A stretch of 25,568 nt of DNA from a virus (lineage: Duplodnaviria > Caudoviricetes). Position 1 is the first letter of the stretch. Each line of letters begins with the position of its first letter. Location: positions 1 to 25,568 of the IMG/VR virus record IMGVR_UViG_3300005442_000002. The stretch is one strand, 5' to 3'. Position numbers and translations under genes: made by a program. The notes under the pieces are model-generated. The model was not told the origin of the DNA. It worked only from the letters and a program-made list of their open reading frames with translations, and made no database searches. This document shows positions 4,276 to 25,568 of this stretch, piece after piece.

Positions 4276-6105
4276 CTAATCTAAGTCATAATCAAACTCA
4301 TCATTCACAGTGAGAGAATCTAACTCTTCGTGATCCTTGATACCAACAGTATCTAGTATATAAAAATCTTCGATTTGATTTGTAGAATCAAAAGAATTTG
4401 ATTCCCTATCTCTTAAATCAATCGCATAGACATCACGCAAACCCAACTCCTCTAACAGAGTATCAAGATTTTGACCTCCTCCTTCAATCAGAAGTACATC
4501 TTCTAACCGAATAGAAGATTCAAAAGAATCATACCTTAAAACATTAACTTTAGTGAAAGTAACATAATCGACAACACTTAAGTCATCCACAATGTCCGAT
4601 GTGAATACCCCCACCGATTCCGAGTAGTAAACCTCTTCAACCGTGACGATATCCACAATATTATCAACATCATCCACTGGCTCATCTTTGTGTTCTAACA
4701 AAATATCCAAAACATCTAAAATGTTCAAATTTTCGATCTTAAAAAACTCCCTAGTAAGTTGAAGGACAGGTTTATCCTCGGGAATAACATCGTTAGGTCT
4801 GGTTTTTGTAGAAACCTGAATACGTAACCCACTAGGTGGTATAATCAAAGGAATATTAGTTTCAACCTCTGCATAAATCTTTGCCCAATAAGGTGGTGTA
4901 TTTGGAGGTAACCAATCCGAAAAGTCAAAAGCAAATTCATCCAATCCACCCCCTGGGCGAGGATTCTTTTGATACGTTCCAACTAAAACATCATCCACAT
5001 AGAGCTTTACTGTTATATAATCAGAAGGACTTAAATCTAAAGAACACTTATAGTCCATGCTAACCGTACAAATAGTCAAATCACTAATAACAAATAACGT
5101 TGGCTGAGTCTTTATTTCCTTTTCATAAGGCTCCCCGTTTGGAGAGATATTCGGCGGTAACGGGTGATTTAGATTACTAGGTCCTAAAAACCCAACACCA
5201 CCTCCACCACCAGCCACTATGAATCTATCGTAGAGGTTATTCATCCAAACGAGCGAACCCTCTTCTCCAGACCAACGAACATCTGTAGCACCTCCACCGC
5301 TGAACGCACCACCGAGACCAGCTCCTCCTCCGTTCCAAGCATAAAGACCATTAGTTTGTCTTCCTTCTTCACCGACATAAATATAAAGCACAGTTCCTGC
5401 TTTAAAATAGAATTCTCCCTTTGCATAACCCCCTTTACCCCCACTATACTTATCACCAAGACGATTAAGTCCTCCGCCCTGCGCCCCATAACATTCAATA
5501 GTGTAAATACCATCAACAGGTACGGTGTAAGTCTGTACTTTTCCAGTATAATCGAACCTAATAATCCCGTTAATTAAACAATATCCGTGACCTTCATTTA
5601 CCCCCATTCGGTACTCAACACTTCCGGGTAAGGCGAAAAATTGTATATCAGGAGGATTATAACCAACAGGCTTATAAGAATCGATAGTATTTACATACCC
5701 CGATCCGCCACCTCCACCAGCACCGATATAACCTGAACCCCCGCCAAACCAACCTGAACCCCCACCACAGGAAATAGTAGAGATTGGAGTACTATATCCA
5801 CCACCAATACCGAACTTACCATCTTGGAATCCCTTACCTGGGGCTTCCTGACTAGCTCCATACCCCGATAGGGAGGGATAACTTTCACTAAAAGGAGTTC
5901 CATCAGAAGGTATAGGCTTACCATTATCCCCCCTAATACCCCCACCTGCACCAGTGGAAGGCAACCCTCCAAAAACAAAACCCCAAGGAAACCCGATAGT
6001 GAAATTATAATCTCCTTTTGAAAAAGGCGGGTGAAAGAACCTACTTAATATAATCCCCAATACAAGAGCGTCATCTCTTCTAAAGAGTGTACTCAAGACC
6101 ATCAC
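4276..6105 (-). CDS. Tail protein with glycine-rich (ALK/LTK-like Gly_rich) domain and acidic C-terminal repeats
   Basis: Motifs FDYTGxVQT, ECYGAQGG, LYIYVG, GGGATDVR, IVAGGGGG, GWFGGG and GGGGGSGYV. Confidence 0.75.
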   Translation of the reverse strand: MMVLSTLFRRDDALVLGIILSRFFHPPFSKGDYNFTIGFPWGFVFGGLPSTGAGGGIRGDNGKPIPSDGTPFSESYPSLSGYGASQEAPGKGFQDGKFGIGGGYSTPISTISCGGGSGWFGGGSGYIGAGGGGGSGYVNTIDSYKPVGYNPPDIQFFALPGSVEYRMGVNEGHGYCLINGIIRFDYTGKVQTYTVPVDGIYTIECYGAQGGGLNRLGDKYSGGKGGYAKGEFYFKAGTVLYIYVGEEGRQTNGLYAWNGGGAGLGGAFSGGGATDVRWSGEEGSLVWMNNLYDRFIVAGGGGGVGFLGPSNLNHPLPPNISPNGEPYEKEIKTQPTLFVISDLTICTVSMDYKCSLDLSPSDYITVKLYVDDVLVGTYQKNPRPGGGLDEFAFDFSDWLPPNTPPYWAKIYAEVETNIPLIIPPSGLRIQVSTKTRPNDVIPEDKPVLQLTREFFKIENLNILDVLDILLEHKDEPVDDVDNIVDIVTVEEVYYSESVGVFTSDIVDDLSVVDYVTFTKVNVLRYDSFESSIRLEDVLLIEGGGQNLDTLLEELGLRDVYAIDLRDRESNSFDSTNQIEDFYILDTVGIKDHEELDSLTVNDEFDYDLD

Positions 6106-7016: not shown

Positions 7017-8399
7017 TTAAGCACCCCTCATCTTAACCATAGTGAGCGTAACATTAACCCTAGAAAAAGCAACACTCATACTGAACTTAGTTACAAGATA
7101 TCGACCATCGAAACTCGATTCTCCTGTATTTATAGTAATATATACCCCAGTCGTGATAAGAGGGCTTAACGCTCCAGATACAACAACCTCTTGCTGCATA
7201 TTACCTAAATACTTCGCTACCTCATTGACATAGGTTTGAGCAACATTTCTATCTTGAATAACAAAAGATTCAATCGCCAAAGTATTCGAAACCTTGACAT
7301 CCGTGTCTTTAACTTCACTTTCCACAAAAGAGTTTGTCAAACCTGCAATTCGACCTTCAACCGTTACACTCACATAAACTGGCTCCGTAAGATTACTTAC
7401 CACCGTGATATTGATACCATTTTGACTAGCTGAATAATCAAGAACCTCGATCTGGTCGATATACGACTCAGCAGTAGCATCTAAATCAATATACACTCCA
7501 TCAATAGACAGAATGTTTTGCTGAATACTTATATTATCTAGTCTATTCTCGCCTGGATTAAGCCTAACATTATTTTGTTGATAGATAATAGAAGAAGGTT
7601 GGTTATTATCGACTTCATTGTAAGACAAGGTTACCCTGTTATAAACAGAGAGTTGGTTATGCTCAATTTGCATATTCTGAAGCCTTAAAGAATTAAGTTC
7701 CCCATAATCATCAATATTAGGGAATGCAGGTTTTACCTGAATTACCCCCGATCGATCGATAGTGATACGAGCCAACAAAGCCTGTGCTATTGTATTTAAC
7801 ACATCACGAAGCAAATCACCCTTAGTGATAGAAACTAACATACTGACCTTATCTTCTAACGAAGGGTCAATATTATATTCATCCGTCGATACCCCAATAG
7901 CGGAGAAGATCTCCTTTAAGAGATCGACTACATCAACCCCTGAATAGGCCGATAATTTAGGAATCTCTCGGTTACCGATAAAAGCCAACTTATCCGTACA
8001 AGTGATACTCGCCGCTTTTGCCCCGCCATTTTCAATAACTACAGACCAATTCTCAGTATAATACTTCCCATAATCCAGCCAAGTGTTTCCACCATCAATA
8101 GAGATATATAACTCCACAAATACCCCGTTACGCATATAACCATAGTAAGGGCTGTTTGTATTGGTAGGAATCAACCTATTCTGGAGATCCCAAATTGTCA
8201 AATTACAGTAGTTAGGTGACATAATACCAACAGGGTTTCCAGAGGTAGCCGCTTCCGACTCATCAACCTGCAACTGCAACAAGATACCATCACAGTCTTT
8301 ATAATCGGATCGGGATGTATAAACCAACCCATTATCAAAGGTCAATACAGCCTTAAATATCTCAGACCCCAACCATTCAACTTGACCCACTACCTCCAC
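7017..8399 (-). CDS. Tail tip/baseplate hub (Tal/gp27-like) protein
   Basis: Two genes after the tape measure. YGKYY..W, ITCTDKL and IDRSGVIQVK patterns and the length fit hub proteins. Confidence 0.65.
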   Translation of the reverse strand: MEVVGQVEWLGSEIFKAVLTFDNGLVYTSRSDYKDCDGILLQLQVDESEAATSGNPVGIMSPNYCNLTIWDLQNRLIPTNTNSPYYGYMRNGVFVELYISIDGGNTWLDYGKYYTENWSVVIENGGAKAASITCTDKLAFIGNREIPKLSAYSGVDVVDLLKEIFSAIGVSTDEYNIDPSLEDKVSMLVSITKGDLLRDVLNTIAQALLARITIDRSGVIQVKPAFPNIDDYGELNSLRLQNMQIEHNQLSVYNRVTLSYNEVDNNQPSSIIYQQNNVRLNPGENRLDNISIQQNILSIDGVYIDLDATAESYIDQIEVLDYSASQNGINITVVSNLTEPVYVSVTVEGRIAGLTNSFVESEVKDTDVKVSNTLAIESFVIQDRNVAQTYVNEVAKYLGNMQQEVVVSGALSPLITTGVYITINTGESSFDGRYLVTKFSMSVAFSRVNVTLTMVKMRGA

Positions 8400-8799
8400 C
8401 CCCTAATATTGGAGCTAACGCCCCTGGAATTTGAATCCAATGGTACTCAACTTTCAAGACTTTAGGAACTCCGTTATCTGACGCCAGTACTTCATAATCA
8501 ATCGGTGTTCCCAAGTAACATGGAACCGTCACGAACCCCCTATCAGGTGTCCATGACGTTACATCGAATCGGTTACCAAATCCGACACCATTGATCTTTG
8601 GTTTTATAATTTGTTCAATTACCTGTAAATCTTCCGCCGTAATATAAGGATAAGACCAAATAAACTTATCCTTCTGGGCAATATTCAAATCCCAAAAATT
8701 TGCAAAGATATCGTTAAAGGAGATACTAACTCTATTCCACTGATACAATTTCCCTAAACTTGGAGCAGGGACTACAACCCCATCAATCATGAAAGGCAT
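8377..8799 (-). CDS. Distal tail (Dit-like) protein
   Basis: Immediately after the tape measure, 140 aa, N-terminal IDGVxVPxPS, AAAGGAGGGG RBS. Confidence 0.6.
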   Translation of the reverse strand: MPFMIDGVVVPAPSLGKLYQWNRVSISFNDIFANFWDLNIAQKDKFIWSYPYITAEDLQVIEQIIKPKINGVGFGNRFDVTSWTPDRGFVTVPCYLGTPIDYEVLASDNGVPKVLKVEYHWIQIPGALAPILGGGGSGSS

Positions 8800-8815: not shown

Positions 8816-10344
8816 TTATTTTCTATTGAAGGTCAACCCACCTGTATTACGAAGGTTGTATTGCACCTGATCCGTAATCAATTGGGCGAATCTCTTAATA
8901 CTGTACTGATCTGCAATAATATTTGCACCCTCTCCAACATGGATATGAAATACACTAGAAGCAAAACTACCATTACCCATTGCATTAAGAATATTATCCG
9001 CAATACCTGCATATGCAGGTTTGGATGCAGGGCTGTTCAAGGGTATTGTTACCTCTTTAACGTCACCAACCACCCCCAAGTGGGGCTTTACGTGAAAACC
9101 CCCTGAAGCATACGATGGGACAACTTTAGACCCACCCAACAAACGACCAACATCATCAATTAAACCTTTACCCCAATTTATAACCTTAGAACCTAAACCT
9201 GTTAACTTTGAACCAATACTTAACGTCCTAAACCCAGTCAACCCAACTCTAGAGGCCATTAATAATCTTGCCGCTGGGCCTACATAAGGTATTAAGGTAG
9301 CTAACGTTCCAACCGCATCAAGAACTGTTATCGCCGCAGCAGGGCTAGGAATCGGAACACGTCTAGGAATCGGAACACGTCTAGGAGCCGGAGCAGGCTT
9401 AGGAGCCGGAGCAGGCTTAGGAGCCGGAGCTGGGCTAGGAACCGGAGTAGGTCTAGGAACCGGAGTAGGTCTAGGAACCGGAGTAGGTTTAGGAACCGGA
9501 GTAGGCCTAGGAGTTGGAACAGGAGTAGGAGTCGGAACAGGCCTAGGAACCGGAACTGGACTAGGAACCGGAACTGGACTAGGAACCGGAACTGGACTAG
9601 GAACCGGAACAGGGATAGGAGTCGGGACAGGCCTAGGAACCGGAACAGGGATAGGATTCGGAACAGAAATAGGAACCTGAATAGGCCTAAGAACCGGAAC
9701 AGGGATAGGATTCGGAACAGAGATAGGAACCTGAACAGGCTTAGAAACCGGAACAGGTGTAACAACAGGTGTTGGTAATGTAAAAGGATTTCTTGTCGAT
9801 GGACCCCTCCCACCAAAGTTAGGAAAATTCGGTAACGGAGGGAGAGATATCGGGATAGTTTCGACTTCATCGAAACTAAACAATAGATTATTCATCCTAT
9901 TAAACAAACGCATCCCCAGGTTACCTAACATACCGAATACATTGACGACAGCCGATAAAGACCTGTTTCCCGATATGAGGTCTTTCAACTTGCTTGTAAT
10001 ATCAAATAAGTTAGAATCAAGTTTTCCACTTGAAGAACTACCTCCACCGAAAGTGGGTAAACCTCCACCGCTTTTACCACCTGACCCAATGGTTTCGTTA
10101 AGACCACCACTATTAATCGAACGAATATTTGATAGAGGTCGAATACCCCGAAGGGCATCGGCATAACTTTGGGCACTCCTAGCTAACTCTTCATAAACAG
10201 GATTCAAACTTTCTAAATCTCTTTAGACTTCTTCAACTCAGCGGAAAGCTCTTTATTCTTTTCTATAATCTTACCCAATACTCGGTCATAAGCGTCAGAC
10301 TTACCACTGACGGTAACTCTAGCCTCATCTTGATTACTCGCCAT
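8816..10344 (-). CDS. Tape measure protein with central proline-rich repeat; apparent -1 frameshift near 10215-10225
   Basis: Lies between the tail chaperones and Dit. Carries the TMP C-terminal motif YASGG..P..GVVGD..EV.IPL. GGAGG+ATG at 10344 opens 43 codons that stop at 10213, just as the 463-aa frame opens. Confidence 0.75.
9342..9778 (-). repeat. In-frame tandem repeat array (18-bp units, one 54-bp duplication) encoding (X-Pro)n
   Basis: Units such as ctaggaaccggaactgga x3, ggagccggagcaggctta x2 and ctaggaatcggaacacgt x2. Confidence 0.95.
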
Positions 10345-10915
10345 TTTTCACACCTCCTACAATCTTAGTCATCTCATTATGAACTTCCTTCTTGAAACGG
10401 AGGATGTCAGCGAGAACCTCTTCCTTCGTCCTAGGAACATATTGATCCCGTAATTTAACAGAAGGAGCCACTTGAGGAAACTCCTTACTCCCCCAAACAG
10501 CCTGAGAGATAAGACCCGATTGAATCCAAGCGACCAACAGGTTATCATTGATAGACTGTTCCCTAGCCTTAATCTTAGCTTCAAGAATACTATTTACCTC
10601 ATTTAACGTCATACATAGAAAATCAGCATACGATATGCCGTTTGACATACATATGCCGAGTAAATGATGGTAAGAGTCCTTGATTTGTTTTAGGAGTTCT
10701 CGCCTTGGGTTTGATCTTGCTCTTGAGGGACTTGATACCCCTGCAGGATCGTAGGGAGAAATACTTGCAACATCGGGAGAACTGCTTGAATTTCCCTCGA
10801 CATTATCGGTAGAATCAGTGACAAGGTGTCCTCCTTGTCCTTCATCAACTCCCCCACCATGTTCAGGTCGCTCTCCTTCATAAAAAAACCTGCTGCTTTC
10901 GCTGCCTCCAAACAA
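10334..10915 (-). CDS. Tail assembly chaperone frameshift extension (gpT-like)
   Basis: -1 frame overlapping the chaperone, with no good RBS. GISYADFLCMTLNEV resembles gpT-part motifs. Directly precedes the TMP. Confidence 0.7.
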   Translation of the reverse strand: MFGGSESSRFFYEGERPEHGGGVDEGQGGHLVTDSTDNVEGNSSSSPDVASISPYDPAGVSSPSRARSNPRRELLKQIKDSYHHLLGICMSNGISYADFLCMTLNEVNSILEAKIKAREQSINDNLLVAWIQSGLISQAVWGSKEFPQVAPSVKLRDQYVPRTKEEVLADILRFKKEVHNEMTKIVGGVKNGE

Positions 10916-11214
10916 AGCGCATGAAGTGCGGGCATACCTAAATCCGTCTCAGCGAGGAACTTCTCGATTGCGGCCTCAGCCTCTTCAGGGTCGATATTCG
11001 GCGTTCCGAGCATAACGAGATCGAGATGGTTCTTAGGCGTGAAACCTCTCAAGTCGTCCAAGACGATTCCATTCTCCGCACAGAAGCGGAAAGTCTTCAT
11101 AGTGTAGCGGAGATTCAAGGTGCGAAAGACTTCACGTGCGCGATCAAGGGTAGAATTAGAAGATTTCTCCGATCTTACCTTAGTTGACCTCGTTTGTTTA
11201 GTCGTTTTGCTCAT
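10690..11214 (-). CDS. Tail assembly chaperone (gpG-like)
   Basis: Between tail tube and TMP. Contains the slippery run GGT TTT TTT (10882-10888). Confidence 0.75.
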   Translation of the reverse strand: MSKTTKQTRSTKVRSEKSSNSTLDRAREVFRTLNLRYTMKTFRFCAENGIVLDDLRGFTPKNHLDLVMLGTPNIDPEEAEAAIEKFLAETDLGMPALHALCLEAAKAAGFFMKESDLNMVGELMKDKEDTLSLILPIMSREIQAVLPMLQVFLPTILQGYQVPQEQDQTQGENS

Positions 11215-11371: not shown

Positions 11372-11860
11372 TTATCCTGCTGGATCAGAAATTGGTGTAG
11401 CTACTCTAGGTTTAGCAATCGGCGTGAATACAAAGCTGAACGTCTGCACTTGCTCAGCTTCACCATCACTAAAAGACAACTCGCTAATAAAACCATCATA
11501 AGTGTAGTCTGGAACAGACTCCGTTGCGCCTACCTCTTTTGGATAAAAAATAGTCAGACTACAATAAAACTGACTATCAGTTACGGACTTTCCTAAAATC
11601 TTGTCCGCAATCCTCTGATAGGAACTGTTCTTCTTAAACAGTGTTATTGTCATCGGTGCAACAGTTTTAGTGGTTGGAGCAGGACGAGTTACCCCGTCTT
11701 GGGAGTCAATTGGGGTAGCATCCACAGTGTTTACCGTAACCCTAACCCCCGTAATAGAACGAATATCCCCGATGATATCATTTGCAGTAGGATTTACCCC
11801 AAACTCGGAAATAGCAACCTTAAATCCGATATTTGGGATTGGAACGAAAATATCCGCCAT
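11372..11860 (-). CDS. Major tail (tube) protein
   Basis: Synteny, 162 aa, VDATPID and YDGFISE patterns, followed by a terminator. Confidence 0.8.
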   Translation of the reverse strand: MADIFVPIPNIGFKVAISEFGVNPTANDIIGDIRSITGVRVTVNTVDATPIDSQDGVTRPAPTTKTVAPMTITLFKKNSSYQRIADKILGKSVTDSQFYCSLTIFYPKEVGATESVPDYTYDGFISELSFSDGEAEQVQTFSFVFTPIAKPRVATPISDPAG

Positions 11861-15160: not shown

Positions 15161-16333
15161 TTAATTAATGTACAAACCTCTCGGTTTGACTGCAGAATTG
15201 GTTTTAGCCGACTTAGTGTTTACGGAGGACGTCTTAGTGAAGTCAATACCCCTTTTAACGGCATTTCCACTGAGCGACTTAGTGGCGACGTATACATATT
15301 CACCATTACCGTTATCATCGCCCTCGCACCCACCTCCGTCATTATCCAAATTCTTAAACAAGAACGAATAATCGGATTTCAGCTTCGCCTTGGCTTCCTC
15401 AACCCCTACTACCGAACCATCTTCGGCAAGAGAGATTTCCTTTTCAGCCACCTGACGAGCGATTTCAGCCGCCGTTTCAGATACCAACTCGAAATCCGAG
15501 AGAACATCTTCAATGGCATGAGCCAGAGTATTCTCGACAATTTCCTGCTCCAACTGCTTAATACGAATATCCTTCTCTTCAACCTCCTTCTCAAGAGCCT
15601 TTACTCTCGACTCCAGAGACTTGAGATTGGCGGATTCCTTTTGGAAGTTTTCAATCGCAGTCGAAATACTTTCAACTACGGATTGATCCACTCCCGAAAA
15701 GGATTTGAGCTTGGCTACTGCTTCCTTCAAATCCATTTTCACAACCTCCCCATTAGGATTAAAACTTTTGACTACCCCAGCGAACCTCTGTGCAGGAACG
15801 GCGACAAACGACCATTCATACACATCTTGAATGTTATCAATACGACTCGCTTTACGACCATCGGGTAACTCGACTATCGTAGGCGGGTCGTGCTTGAAAC
15901 CGATACTAACCTCTTTCAGAATCCCTGCGCCCACATCTTCGATCAACTGCTTATTTTTCTCGGAGTTAATAGTGTAGGCATAACCGACAATATACCGATA
16001 AGGTTCTAAACTCTCATTTTTCTTAGAATCATCGGTAATTAACTCCGTCTTATAGATACGAGAGTGTTGATTGTTACTTTTCCACTCATGATTAAAAATA
16101 CCCGTGGTTCCCACAAACAACTCTTTCAACTGCTCTAATGCCCTTAACGAGAAGAACTCACCTTCCCGATCAAGAAGGTTATCGCAGAGTTTAATAGAAT
16201 ATACAAAAATATCCGACTTAGGAATTTCAATTGGCAAAAATTCCTTGATAAGTTCATAATCAGAATCGGAAGGTTCACCAAACTTATCAAGATGCTTAAC
16301 AACAGGCTGGAACATAGACTTAAGTTTTGCCAT
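15161..16333 (-). CDS. Prohead protease fused to a coiled-coil scaffold region
   Basis: IFNH, EVSIGF and EWSFVAVPAQ are HK97-type protease motifs. Acidic coiled-coil C-terminal half. RBS supports the ATG at 16333. Confidence 0.82.
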   Translation of the reverse strand: MAKLKSMFQPVVKHLDKFGEPSDSDYELIKEFLPIEIPKSDIFVYSIKLCDNLLDREGEFFSLRALEQLKELFVGTTGIFNHEWKSNNQHSRIYKTELITDDSKKNESLEPYRYIVGYAYTINSEKNKQLIEDVGAGILKEVSIGFKHDPPTIVELPDGRKASRIDNIQDVYEWSFVAVPAQRFAGVVKSFNPNGEVVKMDLKEAVAKLKSFSGVDQSVVESISTAIENFQKESANLKSLESRVKALEKEVEEKDIRIKQLEQEIVENTLAHAIEDVLSDFELVSETAAEIARQVAEKEISLAEDGSVVGVEEAKAKLKSDYSFLFKNLDNDGGGCEGDDNGNGEYVYVATKSLSGNAVKRGIDFTKTSSVNTKSAKTNSAVKPRGLYIN

Positions 16334-17984
16334 TGATGTTTGCACCCCCTAACGGATAGAATCGTACAGGTTCACCTTTACCCCCTGATGGAGGGTTTAT
16401 ATCTACCGTTGACGAATGTGTCAAATTCACATCCGATACTACCGACCCTTCTCCAGAATCCGTGTTACTTACAGAAGGCTGTTCAATAGGAGGTTCGCCC
16501 CTCAACTGCCTTGCCCTAGCCTGAGCTTCCGCCATCGTTACATCATCGAGAATAGCAATTGAATCCTCCAGAGATAAAGTCTTTGCTCCACCATTACGCT
16601 TTTGAACGATTTCGGTAACCGTTTCAATATCGTTGACGAAACCACTCTCAGCCGTCAAGGTGAAGTCGGACATATCAATCTCGATACCCCCTGCCAGCGC
16701 AAGTTTTACAACTAACATCTTGGCAGAGTTTTGGATTAACGTACTCAACGACTTCGCCTTCAACTCAGTACGATACATTGCGGTTTTAAGAGCTTTACCC
16801 GTCATCTGATGACCAAGTTCCTTCGTATCAAATAACGTATACGACAGGTCGGTATCCCTAGATACCCGAACCACTGTCTCCTTATAAGCTTGAATAGCCT
16901 CATCCATCAAAACTGAAGGCGTTACACTCTTAACCTCGGGAGCCTTTCCATCCTGGGTTACCCGATACATAATTGCCCCAGTCTGCTGCATGAAAGTAAC
17001 GCCCGTATTCTCATCCCGTTGAGTTGCCCCTTCAGGGAGAACACGATAAATCTCCTTAGTACGCTCCAAGAGGACTAGAATAGTTTCAAACGCCTTCATA
17101 GAGGAAACAATTGAAGCTTCCCACTTTTTGAACTGCTCTTCCCCATAAATGGTGTTCCCAATACGTTGACCCGTAAAGACCACGATAGGTGATACCCCCA
17201 AACCATTGAAGGCTTGGGATTCAACCCTATCGAGCAACTCACCCAATTTACAAGAATCTTTCAAATATCGGAAAGTATACTTCTCAATCTTACCATCCTC
17301 ATGATACAGGATGAACTCACAGAACCAATCCTTCCCAGTGGCGACAACACCTTCTACAACCTCATAACCCCGCTTCGGGCAAAAGATATTAAAGAAGCAG
17401 TTAACGTCAATCGTGGTAATATCATTCTCATTCACGAAAGGAATCCAGTTCTTGATAGGCATTTCAACAATCTTCGGGTTACCCCCACGCTGGCGATCTA
17501 TTCGGAATACGGCATTACCATACAAAACGAGTGCACCGCGAACTGCCGATTGAAAGGCAACTGCAAAGTTAGATGCACCCAACAAAGTCGATACTTGCGT
17601 TATTTTAGATGCATCTGGACCATCAATCTTTGGAGATTTGGCCGATAAAAGATCAACCCAAGTATCCGTAACCATTCTAAAGTCGGGAAGCGTAGGAATA
17701 ACTCGCAAAATTGGGTAATTTGTCACAGCGTCACGCATATAATCGTTAAAGTTTACAATCGTATCGAAAATCTGGTCGTATGCCTCACACTTATATAAGG
17801 CTTCATTTGTCTTAAACAAATTAGCCCGTTCCCGGATAAAGTCCGTAGGGAAGGTATCGCCCTCTTTGAACGGTAACTCACCATCCCAAATAAAGGTATT
17901 TTCAGGGACAATATCGAAATTGTCCTCAGTCAACAGGCTAATATTACGAAATGAATTCTTACGATTGGTAGGGTTGCGGTACAC
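16320..17984 (-). CDS. Portal protein
   Basis: 554 aa directly after TerL. GN.VFRI and TGKALK motifs are reminiscent of SPP1-like portals. Confidence 0.85.
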   Translation of the reverse strand: MYRNPTNRKNSFRNISLLTEDNFDIVPENTFIWDGELPFKEGDTFPTDFIRERANLFKTNEALYKCEAYDQIFDTIVNFNDYMRDAVTNYPILRVIPTLPDFRMVTDTWVDLLSAKSPKIDGPDASKITQVSTLLGASNFAVAFQSAVRGALVLYGNAVFRIDRQRGGNPKIVEMPIKNWIPFVNENDITTIDVNCFFNIFCPKRGYEVVEGVVATGKDWFCEFILYHEDGKIEKYTFRYLKDSCKLGELLDRVESQAFNGLGVSPIVVFTGQRIGNTIYGEEQFKKWEASIVSSMKAFETILVLLERTKEIYRVLPEGATQRDENTGVTFMQQTGAIMYRVTQDGKAPEVKSVTPSVLMDEAIQAYKETVVRVSRDTDLSYTLFDTKELGHQMTGKALKTAMYRTELKAKSLSTLIQNSAKMLVVKLALAGGIEIDMSDFTLTAESGFVNDIETVTEIVQKRNGGAKTLSLEDSIAILDDVTMAEAQARARQLRGEPPIEQPSVSNTDSGEGSVVSDVNLTHSSTVDINPPSGGKGEPVRFYPLGGANINGKT

Positions 17985-21155: not shown

Positions 21156-22418
21156 TCACATATTATACCTCCGTTTACCCCTTTTATCGGCATCAGGATT
21201 GCGAACAATACGACCATTCACAACTCTATACCTAAACTTGTAATAGTCACGAATGTTGTACTCCGTAACATCATTCGATTCAGTCTTACGAGAACGAGAA
21301 GCCATGAAAGCCAGCTTCAAGTTATACCCCTCAGAACCAACAACATCAATCTCGGACTTAAACTGTTTAATCGCCTTAGTCTCAGACATCATAGTCTTCA
21401 AATAATCAATACGCTCAAACATTAACAAGAGGAACCGTTCAGCATCGGTGATTTCACCATCACCACTGAACAAGTCAATCCTAGTATCGAACCTTCTATC
21501 CCTCACTTCAACTGCTTCAGTAACCTTAGTCACCAAACCCTTAACAGAATCTTTAACAGGAGTAGACAACCCATCCAACTTAGCGTTGATTTCCTTCAGC
21601 AAGGCTAACACTTCCGACATATCATTTTGGACTGGACAAACGTAAGGAACCGTGGTAGCAACCGAAGTAGTCGACTTCATTGCTACTTCAGGCTGAGTAG
21701 CAGTAGGCGAAGTAGTCGACTTATTTGCTACTTCACCATTTGAAGTAGTCGACTTCATTGCTACTTCATTTTTATAAGGAATAACGATACTCCCAATAGA
21801 AGGCTTCTTGAAAGGAAATAAAGTAGTCGACTTATTCACTACTTCATTATCAGTAATCGACTGACCTTCCCTCTGCTTTTTACCAAACTCAATCGGATCA
21901 AAACCCCTCTTACCCATGAAAACCTCTAAGATATAAATTGCGGCAGGGATGCTCTTCACCATAGTTGCATTAATCGATACCCCATCGAAGGTACAACGCT
22001 CCAAGTTGGAATAATAACGATACTGCCCATCTTTACCCCTAGCCCAACTCATACGGATATCCCTCTTAGGTACAGAAGGGATAAGGTATTTATCGACATT
22101 CTTACGAATATAGTCGATATAGTCAAGATGGATATCGAACAACCCTTCCGGCATATACAATCGATACCCCTTACGAGATACAACTTGACTCTTTTTACCG
22201 CTACTGTCATACTTCGTTACAATCTTCCCGTCAGCATCAACATCTGGACCACGTAAACCTCTAGCTATTTTTACACCTTTCCTACTTAATTGATAAAAAT
22301 CCCATTCTTCCAAAGCACTAGCGATATAAACTGCGTCATTCTTTCTTAATCTCTTAAATTTTAGCTCAACTTTGGGAGTGTACTCCCTTTGACCCCTTAA
22401 AGGTACTACATCCCCCAT
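21156..22418 (-). CDS. Putative replication initiator containing its own origin
   Basis: Largest early gene, with four 27-bp iteron-like repeats in a low-complexity linker (lambda O-type arrangement). No family recognised. Confidence 0.55.
   Translation of the reverse strand: MGDVVPLRGQREYTPKVELKFKRLRKNDAVYIASALEEWDFYQLSRKGVKIARGLRGPDVDADGKIVTKYDSSGKKSQVVSRKGYRLYMPEGLFDIHLDYIDYIRKNVDKYLIPSVPKRDIRMSWARGKDGQYRYYSNLERCTFDGVSINATMVKSIPAAIYILEVFMGKRGFDPIEFGKKQREGQSITDNEVVNKSTTLFPFKKPSIGSIVIPYKNEVAMKSTTSNGEVANKSTTSPTATQPEVAMKSTTSVATTVPYVCPVQNDMSEVLALLKEINAKLDGLSTPVKDSVKGLVTKVTEAVEVRDRRFDTRIDLFSGDGEITDAERFLLLMFERIDYLKTMMSETKAIKQFKSEIDVVGSEGYNLKLAFMASRSRKTESNDVTEYNIRDYYKFRYRVVNGRIVRNPDADKRGKRRYNM
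21664..21846. repeat. Four 27-bp iteron-like repeats (putative ori)
   Basis: RAAGTAGTCGACTT-N5-CTACTTCA at 21664, 21709, 21742 and 21820. Confidence 0.85.
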
Positions 22419-24462: not shown

Positions 24463-25568
24463 ACTCCTAAAATTTAATAAAACTTACTTTCCCCTATTCA
24501 ACAACTCCTCGTTTTTCTTCTGCAAATAATCTATAAACGAACCATACTCCGTATTGAAGTGCTCCCACCCTTTATTCTCAATATACTGCACCTTCTCCCT
24601 AACTTCCCGATAATAACTGAAGTACAAGAGAAACAGAAACACAAAACAAAGTAAAACTAACACAAACTAAAACTAACACCTTCCACCAGTTAATCTTCAT
24701 CCCGATACCCCTCCTTATGGAGTGTCTTCAAGTGCAACTGAATTAACTCTTCCAACTCTTTATTGAAACTCGGACTAGAGAATAATTTTTCAACAGTGAG
24801 TAAAACACGGTTTGCTACACCTTCCAAATGAATTATCCCCCTTACCTCTTCAATACCCCCGACAACTTATCAGCTAACCGTTGAGTCCAACTCAAATCTA
24901 ACGGAGTCTCGCAAACATACTCTTTACCTCTTATCGTGGCTTTAGACCTCACTAAACGAAGGCGACCTTTCTTATCAAAGTGAAATTCGGATCTCACCAT
25001 TGAGTTGTCTAAATCCTTATTCCGGTGAGTTACCGTTAATAAGGTGTCACCACCATAGATATTACCTTCAAAATTTTTCACACGCTCAACAGAAAGATAC
25101 TTAGAACTGTTATAAAGGAATTTTTCAACTCGGTCGATGGGTGCAGTCAAGGTTAGCACGATATACCCCCTCCTAGCGATTACCTAGATAATACCTAGTG
25201 AATAACAAAAGGACTCCAGTTGCTCACTAGGTATTAACTCTTTATACCCCTTGACGAGATAGGAAGAAAATTTTACTTGGACTGGCAAGTTTACCCCGAT
25301 ACCGCATAAGCTGTGTAGCGAAGCACACAGCAATAGGGTCAATCTGACCGTTAAAAGCCGTTCACATGCTTACCACTGCCTCAACCTTCAACTCGTAAAA
25401 TATAAAATACTCGCGATACCCCCATAAACACAAAAGCTACTGCTCACTCGCAGTAGCTCTTCCTCTCGGTATAAACAACTTACCCATTACGATAGGAAAG
25501 ATGCTGAATCAATTTCTCTCTTACAGGATGGTCGTTAGGAACTAAGGCTAGAAGGGCTTCCATGATAA
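24463..25568 (+). repeat. Terminal direct repeat/overlap, copy 2
   Basis: 1106 bp matching 1..1115. Ends inside the 98-aa membrane protein gene (only its 3' part, 25480-25568, is present). Confidence 0.97.
24842..25159 (-). CDS. Duplicate of 389..706 in the terminal repeat
   Basis: Identical protein, one synonymous SNP (25031). Confidence 0.8.
   Translation of the reverse strand: MLTLTAPIDRVEKFLYNSSKYLSVERVKNFEGNIYGGDTLLTVTHRNKDLDNSMVRSEFHFDKKGRLRLVRSKATIRGKEYVCETPLDLSWTQRLADKLSGVLKR

Follow-up and report, generated by a model that had tools for sequence, protein, structure and literature searches.

An X-Pro repeat as one allele of a swappable middle in a predicted phage tape measure protein

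What does a tape measure protein (TMP) measure when a large part of its middle cannot be helical? The rule that a tail gains 0.15 nm per TMP residue rests on helical rulers, and the TMP middle is unresolved in the maps of lambda, Mu and P74-26, as far as the accessible accounts of them go. The question is raised by a tail gene of an uncultured phage whose middle is a long X-Pro repeat.

The DNA analysed (the window) is a stretch of 25,568 nucleotides from the IMG/VR virus record IMGVR_UViG_3300005442_000002, which is rated 92% complete (G000). It amounts to one nearly whole genome of ~24.46 kb; positions 1–1115 recur at 24463–25568 with 98.8% identity. The genome is small for a long-tailed phage. 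The runs carrying it are from compost and soil metagenomes and span 2011–2025. Families matched in the window include terminase, portal, scaffold, capsid, adaptors and endolysin, and its capsid and hub proteins had no cultured match among 50,697 phage records. In GTDB genomes, a TMP-pattern search returned no TMP relatives and a Dit search returned one relative. The host is probably, on weak evidence, a member of the Bacillota: the best endolysin match, at 35% identity, belongs to an Alicyclobacillus phage, and one relative is located in a Clostridia MAG. The tail module around the gene is as follows.

11372–11860, minus strand: tail tube protein (NF047353 phage tail tube, E 0.008, below the cut-off; an orthologue matches phrog_158, major tail, E 0.007)
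10690–11214, minus strand: putative tail assembly chaperone G (slippery G-T7 run at ~10882–10890, kept in 5/5 loci examined)
10334–10890, minus strand: putative frameshift extension GT, overlapping G in the -1 frame (phrog_2066, unknown function)
8816–10344, minus strand: tape measure protein gene, encoding 509 aa once an assembly break is bridged (frame analysis; orthologues match TMP PHROGs)
8377–8799, minus strand: Dit-like protein of 140 aa, DUF6711-like with a tail-tube fold (fold comparison)
7017–8399, minus strand: tail protein of 460 aa in the hub/Tal position (phrog_1887 tail protein, E 1e-5)

The order tube, G/GT, gene, Dit, hub is common to the window and the related loci L004, L014, L016 and L018; locus L017 terminates within its Dit-like gene. 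G has no family match, and G and GT are assigned by position and frameshift. The slippery run is common to L004, L014, L016, L017 and the window, and a GT-type overlapping frame is present in L004 and L017 too. The run is followed by the last 65 codons of G, and the C-termini of G and GT are long, different and encoded in overlapping frames. Searched against the PDB, the Dit-like protein gave nothing at E<=0.001, the best rows being tube and baseplate chains.

The initial annotation placed the gene at 8816–10344 and gave it ~507 residues. In the window, the frame from the ATG at 10344 stops after 43 codons, and the repeat is encoded in a different one. Runs X4, X8 and X9, all three that cover position 10214 (X3 does not), contain one base more at this site. 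The frame is also open in L008, a carrier of the same allele, and in L004 and L005. The frame break is therefore an assembly error, and the protein has 509 residues. A programmed frameshift at the 5' end of the gene is ruled out by the other assemblies being open through the site. A 180-aa frame (‘LFRFL’) and plus-strand frames across the repeat are by-products of the repeat. The gene is made up of the following parts.

10136–10344, minus strand: N-terminal segment, aa 1–70, conserved and predicted to be helical (BLASTP E 1e-15 to 4e-4 to L014, P0012, L016 and L017)
10214–10215: frame-breaking one-base deletion in the window assembly (extra base in 3/3 covering runs; L008 open)
9842–9901, minus strand: conserved ‘NLLFSFDEV’ block, which bounds the swappable middle on its left side and is an apparent crossover point (alignments and run contigs)
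9341–9778, minus strand: X-Pro repeat, aa 190–335 (146 residues, 64 Pro, 24 imperfect 18-nt units)
9230–9337, minus strand: hydrophobic segment immediately C-terminal to the repeat, a putative membrane hairpin (relatives have one at the equivalent position by alignment)
8816–9112, minus strand: conserved C-terminal domain from YASGG, aa 412–509 (nearest ESM Atlas clusters are phage minor tail proteins)

The gene is almost certainly a siphophage TMP, its ends, its place in the gene order and its orthologues all being TMP-like. As first noted, it lies between G/GT-type genes and a Dit-like gene, and a TMP-type C-terminal motif is present (YASGG...HLGVVGDVKEVTIPL). Both ends of the protein match orthologues of 507–1031 aa, and TMP PHROGs were matched by 2/7 orthologous sequences in one set and by 7/12 in another, with a best E of 2e-14; the orthologues concerned are P0002 (E 6e-9), P0013, P0014, P0019, P0020, P0022, P0027 and P0028. 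The window protein itself has no match in PHROGs, Pfam or NCBIfam. It also lacks the helical body that is a defining feature of TMPs, and its middle shows no W/F at every 11 or 18 residues, the pattern of the TP901-1/p2 type. The hydropathy maximum, 1.65, falls in a single segment at aa 337–355, and the pairwise score of the hydrophobic segment with P0015 is not significant (E 0.22). An AlphaFold2 model built on a 3-sequence alignment has a pLDDT of 36 and places, with low confidence, a helix at positions 4–25 of the 468-aa piece modelled; the X-Pro block is neither helix nor strand in it, at a pLDDT of 29–50.

The near-alternation of proline that had been described over ~145 residues is real. 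In the 146-residue block, 64/64 prolines share one phase (64 even, 0 odd), and the longest unbroken Pro-x run covers 93 residues (9383–9661), against a maximum of 13 in 5000 shuffles of the whole protein and 19 in 5000 shuffles of the block alone. TRF finds a period of 18 with 23.2 copies at 9340–9757. The middle segment has 7 aromatic residues in 254 aa, compared with 16–41 in six relatives, and four crude rules class 216–251 of the 382 core residues as helix-incompatible. The Pro columns of the repeat unit hold proline in 20, 22 and 21 of the 24 units, and the X columns hold 4–6 residue types. Selection would thus appear to act on the protein, with the prolines fixed and the intervening residues free to vary. 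When run X4 is compared with the window, 12/13 differences in the block, among the rows listed, are at non-Pro codons and 1/13 at a Pro third position, while in the C-terminal domain all four differences listed are at third positions; the 35 places compared come from the best 40 of 116 rows, and repeat contigs may be placed out of register. In the same run the repeat closes with ~47 additional nucleotides (9327), and there is a 132-nt in-frame skip (9419–9552); this suggests variation in unit number between strains, contigs through repeats being unreliable. The repeat would have started as a short proline-rich seed, of the kind seen at this site in other short relatives, would have expanded through slippage in steps of 18 nt and would have displaced ~110 residues of amphipathic sequence.

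It is very improbable that the block is a neutral or harmful expansion in a defective gene, or an artefact of assembly. The frameshift in the window's TMP gene would suit that explanation, and short-read contigs break within the repeat (L006 and L008 end there), which leaves the window assembly as the basis for the exact number of units. However, the frameshift is absent from all three covering runs and from L008, pieces of the repeat occur in all four runs examined, and the changes leave the prolines and the C-terminal domain intact. The X-Pro allele persists in the 2011–2025 runs, across several studies.

What sets this gene apart is found by comparison with L004. Apart from a gap of ~1 kb within the TMP gene, L004 and the window are 97–98% identical. 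Identical residues number 153/162 in the tube protein, 167/174 in G, 140/140 in Dit and 454/460 in the hub. Within the TMP gene, DNA identity is 93–100% at both ends but near 50% from ~10100 to ~9120. The L004 TMP has 529 aa, the same ends and an unrelated middle free of the X-Pro repeat, and L005 is likewise. This other middle consists, in order, of a short proline-rich stretch, ~110 residues with spaced W/F that are predicted to form amphipathic helices, a hydrophobic segment and G/S/T/R-rich 20-residue repeats. P0001 is the L004-type allele minus one repeat and has 509 aa, exactly as the window protein has; YAxGG stands at position 412 in both, although their sub-segments differ by +21, +32 and -53 residues. 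One of two hydrophobic segments has been lost from the X-Pro allele. In P0002 (507 aa, C-terminal domain 63% identical), window-like flanks enclose an amphipathic middle.

The middle from FDEV to YxxGG thus comes in two or more alleles that are unrelated to each other, in phages otherwise 97–98% identical. The X-Pro repeat is one allele of this swappable middle and not a fixed trait of the phage type. In X9 and X11, contig pieces switch at the FDEV block from a left part of window type to a middle of L004 type, a sign of recombination at that block; the contigs concerned are short and separate, with a depth of 2–4. In run X10, a loose end in the region of L004:8368-8438 looks like yet another allele of the middle, similar to P0002 and to the window in the sequence that follows FDEV. 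Parts of the sister allele without read cover were not taken as absent. The interval from FDEV to YxxGG is 232–275 aa in 6/7 proteins, so the repeat takes the place of about as many residues as it contains.

How such a replacement would affect the tail depends on the path of the chain. By peptide geometry an X-Pro block cannot be alpha-helical, and polyproline II (PPII) rises by ~0.31 nm per residue compared with 0.15 nm for an alpha-helix; for 146 residues this comes to 45 nm as PPII or 22 nm as helix. The block would run extended along the tail lumen and so give more length per residue. Confined with 2–5 other copies in a ~4-nm tube, it would give 0.2–0.3 nm per residue, and the tail is predicted to be ~5–23 nm (1–6 rings) longer than that of the 509-aa sister allele. 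The gain would be in reach and not in saved codons. The reading we favour, at about even odds, is a TMP with a slippage-expanded, extended X-Pro stretch and a tail longer than its equal-length sister's. A more specific version is less likely than not: the lineage would have lost ~280 helical residues and regained reach with non-helical segments, a PPII rod of ~45 nm replacing amphipathic helices, and two 509-residue rulers would give tails ~20 nm (5–6 rings) apart. Since the sister allele is itself one third non-helical, the gap may be only 5–15 nm.

Simple models illustrate the range. Counting residues gives 55 nm for the window protein, P0001 and P0002 alike, and a two-rate model (0.15 and 0.31) gives 92–97 nm for the window, 78–92 nm for P0001, 74–90 nm for P0002 and 103–123 nm for relatives of 767–813 aa; the inputs are four simple propensity rules and not a secondary-structure predictor. 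With the double rate given to X-Pro alone, the tails of the two alleles would differ by up to 23 nm. Published rulers, cited here and below for the accessible parts of each source, provide several yardsticks. In TP901-1 each measuring residue adds 0.145 nm, and 127 residues do not measure (PMC5099701); the length of the YscP needle is inverse to the ruler's helical content (review, PMC2835726); and the TMP of T4 is described as stretched and later compressed by DNA (PMC12929629). For the contractile AlgoCIS the figure is 0.229 nm per residue, and an insertion of 64 residues lengthens it by ~17 nm (10.64898/2026.05.27.728243), a ratio of 0.27 by our arithmetic. P88 tails measure 137 nm and those of pro147 131 nm (PMC5285337); the P88 TMP has only a short proline-rich stretch, and for it the two-rate model gives 126–145 nm and the count model 117 nm, a calibration of little weight as P88 is a myophage and the intercept is borrowed. 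By analogy with YscP and AlgoCIS, the initial proposal that a non-helical stretch yields more length per residue is plausible, though the equal residue counts also fit a ruler that counts residues. Its further suggestion of twice the length per codon fails: the proline allele has 509 aa and the repeat-free forms 509 or 529, and with residue counts equal no codons are saved. The correspondence drawn between two 6-aa units (37 Å) and one tail-tube ring is arithmetic only, the units being imperfect and giving no support for a register with the tube.

The same counts speak for a ruler read by residue number, in which the X-Pro block is tolerated filler, chaperones and tube take up a similar number of residues for each ring whatever the backbone, and the chain is wound in the lumen at ~0.15 nm per residue, giving both alleles a tail of ~55–75 nm. 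This is somewhat unlikely. Residue count is kept despite the swap (509, 509, 507, 522, 529 and 569), which speaks against an extended ruler; with a constant tail length and X-Pro residues that count twice, a block of roughly half the size would be expected. Both alleles reach 509 residues, with YAxGG at 412, from sub-segments that differ, P0002 is close at 507, the middle segment is 232–275 aa in 6/7 proteins, and G is nearly unchanged between the alleles. A wound, compact path is also sterically possible, as it fills only 20–40% of the lumen, the 40% being for six chains at a rise of 1.5 Å. Against it, we know of no force able to press a stiff chain into a compact form ahead of tube capping. 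The existence of 529-aa sister forms and of suggested recombinant forms means that 509 = 509 may be chance. TP901-1, which keeps to 0.145 nm per residue, tolerates alanines in place of a repeat (PMC5099701), and both points speak against the extended ruler. Alanine, however, keeps the helix and so is no test of proline, and YscP is sensitive to helix content (PMC2835726).

An altogether different use of the block, as a stiff spacer of <=45 nm that after ejection carries a membrane-inserting hydrophobic segment from the tail tip across a thick Gram-positive wall, is improbable. On this account the alleles would be host adaptations and any effect on tail length secondary. TonB-type proline-rich spacers do span wall or periplasm, the block is directly N-terminal of the only strong hydrophobic segment, and the host is likely to be of the Bacillota. 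A proline rod, however, offers no obvious wall for a DNA channel, the X-Pro allele is without one of the two hydrophobic segments, and the distal tail genes checked, Dit and hub, are near-identical in both alleles and so show no sign of a change of host.

The extended X-Pro ruler, to return to it, was also considered against the wider family. A profile search gave 33 matches, from which five were dropped (the fragments P0016, P0023, P0024 and P0033, and P0025, an unrelated-looking repeat) and to which three were added, leaving 31 proteins for comparison. A helical core of ~280 residues is present in 22/31 and absent from nine, which include the five shortest (507–569 aa). In each of the five, FDEV is followed directly by a proline-rich stretch, of ~50 residues in P0013 and P0014, ~20 in P0002, ~13 in P0001 and 146 in the window, the lengths being judged by eye. 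Their maximum of prolines per 40 residues is 7–20, compared with 2–8 in the 22 core-bearing proteins, and a crude rule assigns them 123–243 non-helical residues against a median of ~86 (by hand) in the core-bearing group. The trend for proline-rich stretches to compensate for a lost core is nevertheless weak: the short forms are related to one another, P0017 combines great length with a non-helical character, and 4/22 core-bearing proteins reach 147–171 non-helical residues by the same rule. The window protein, P0001, P0002 and P0012 form one starred clade in a tree in which 14/28 inner branches are open. P0012 (813 aa) has a C-terminal domain akin to that of the short forms and is without the usual core; in its place are ~350 E/K/A/R-rich residues predicted to form a coiled coil, an apparent re-lengthening by helix. 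P0017 (769 aa), also core-less, has long K/P/T-rich non-helical stretches and is 37% non-helical by the crude rule.

Several known systems share parts of this arrangement. The TMP of TP901-1 likewise follows G/GT and precedes Dit, and has conserved ends (essential in TP901-1), a hydrophobic segment and a variable, repeat-bearing middle (PMC5099701). It has 937 aa, is predicted to be largely helical and carries aromatic repeats of 11 or 18 residues (PMC5099701), whereas the window TMP has 509 aa, no helical core and 146 residues unable to form a helix; W/F-spaced segments of the TP901-1 type are found in the sister allele and not in that of the window. YscP of the Yersinia injectisome resembles what is proposed here, as a narrow-channel ruler whose output is set by helical content together with residue number (PMC2835726). 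It differs in being a transient, secreted type III ruler without homology to the window TMP, and in that its effect was engineered and measured, whereas the one proposed here would be natural. Alg14 of the eCIS cited above is a ruler of ~526 residues that also exceeds 0.15 nm per residue (0.229), but it belongs to a contractile system, its middle is predicted to be helical and no proline repeat is reported for it in the accessible text (10.64898/2026.05.27.728243). Slippage-generated repeats that alter TMP length are described in a survey which finds tandem repeats in about half of 45,500 TMPs, with polyA/G/S/T dominant (PMC13585406); the survey counts residues and, in the parts covered, does not treat proline alternation or length per residue. 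No report of X-Pro TMPs was found in the literature open without a subscription, and none occur in the accessible parts of PMC11915804, PMC3556154, PMC10721106, PMC13243795, PMC10034513 and PMC5285337. What is particular to this case is an equal-length replacement within a near-isogenic tail module. Long X-Pro alternation itself is shared with the PPII spacers of the TonB type, the PPII conformation being predicted here.

The swap suggests that other sequence can stand in for much of the amphipathic middle, the presumed lining of the DNA channel. Two natural alleles of equal residue count and opposite backbone type, in tail modules otherwise nearly identical, single out one question: does the tube respond to the number of residues or to the length of an extended chain? 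If X-Pro tails are longer, the 0.15-nm rule is broken and there is a compact way to tune the length of the tail or of an injection tube, and if a gap of ~20 nm is true, backbone conformation and not residue count sets tail length. If the tails are equal, the chaperones impose the pitch.

Three other features of the genome may be recorded. Four copies of a direct repeat of ~25–39 nt at 21652–21846, inside an unannotated 420-aa ORF (21156–22418), resemble iterons within a replication initiator gene. The ORF at 15161–16345 has a protease-like N-terminal region fused to a scaffold domain (PF06810). The tail-region protein at 4276–6105 combines an ALK/LTK-type glycine-rich domain (PF12810, E 5e-30) with an acidic, repetitive C-terminus.
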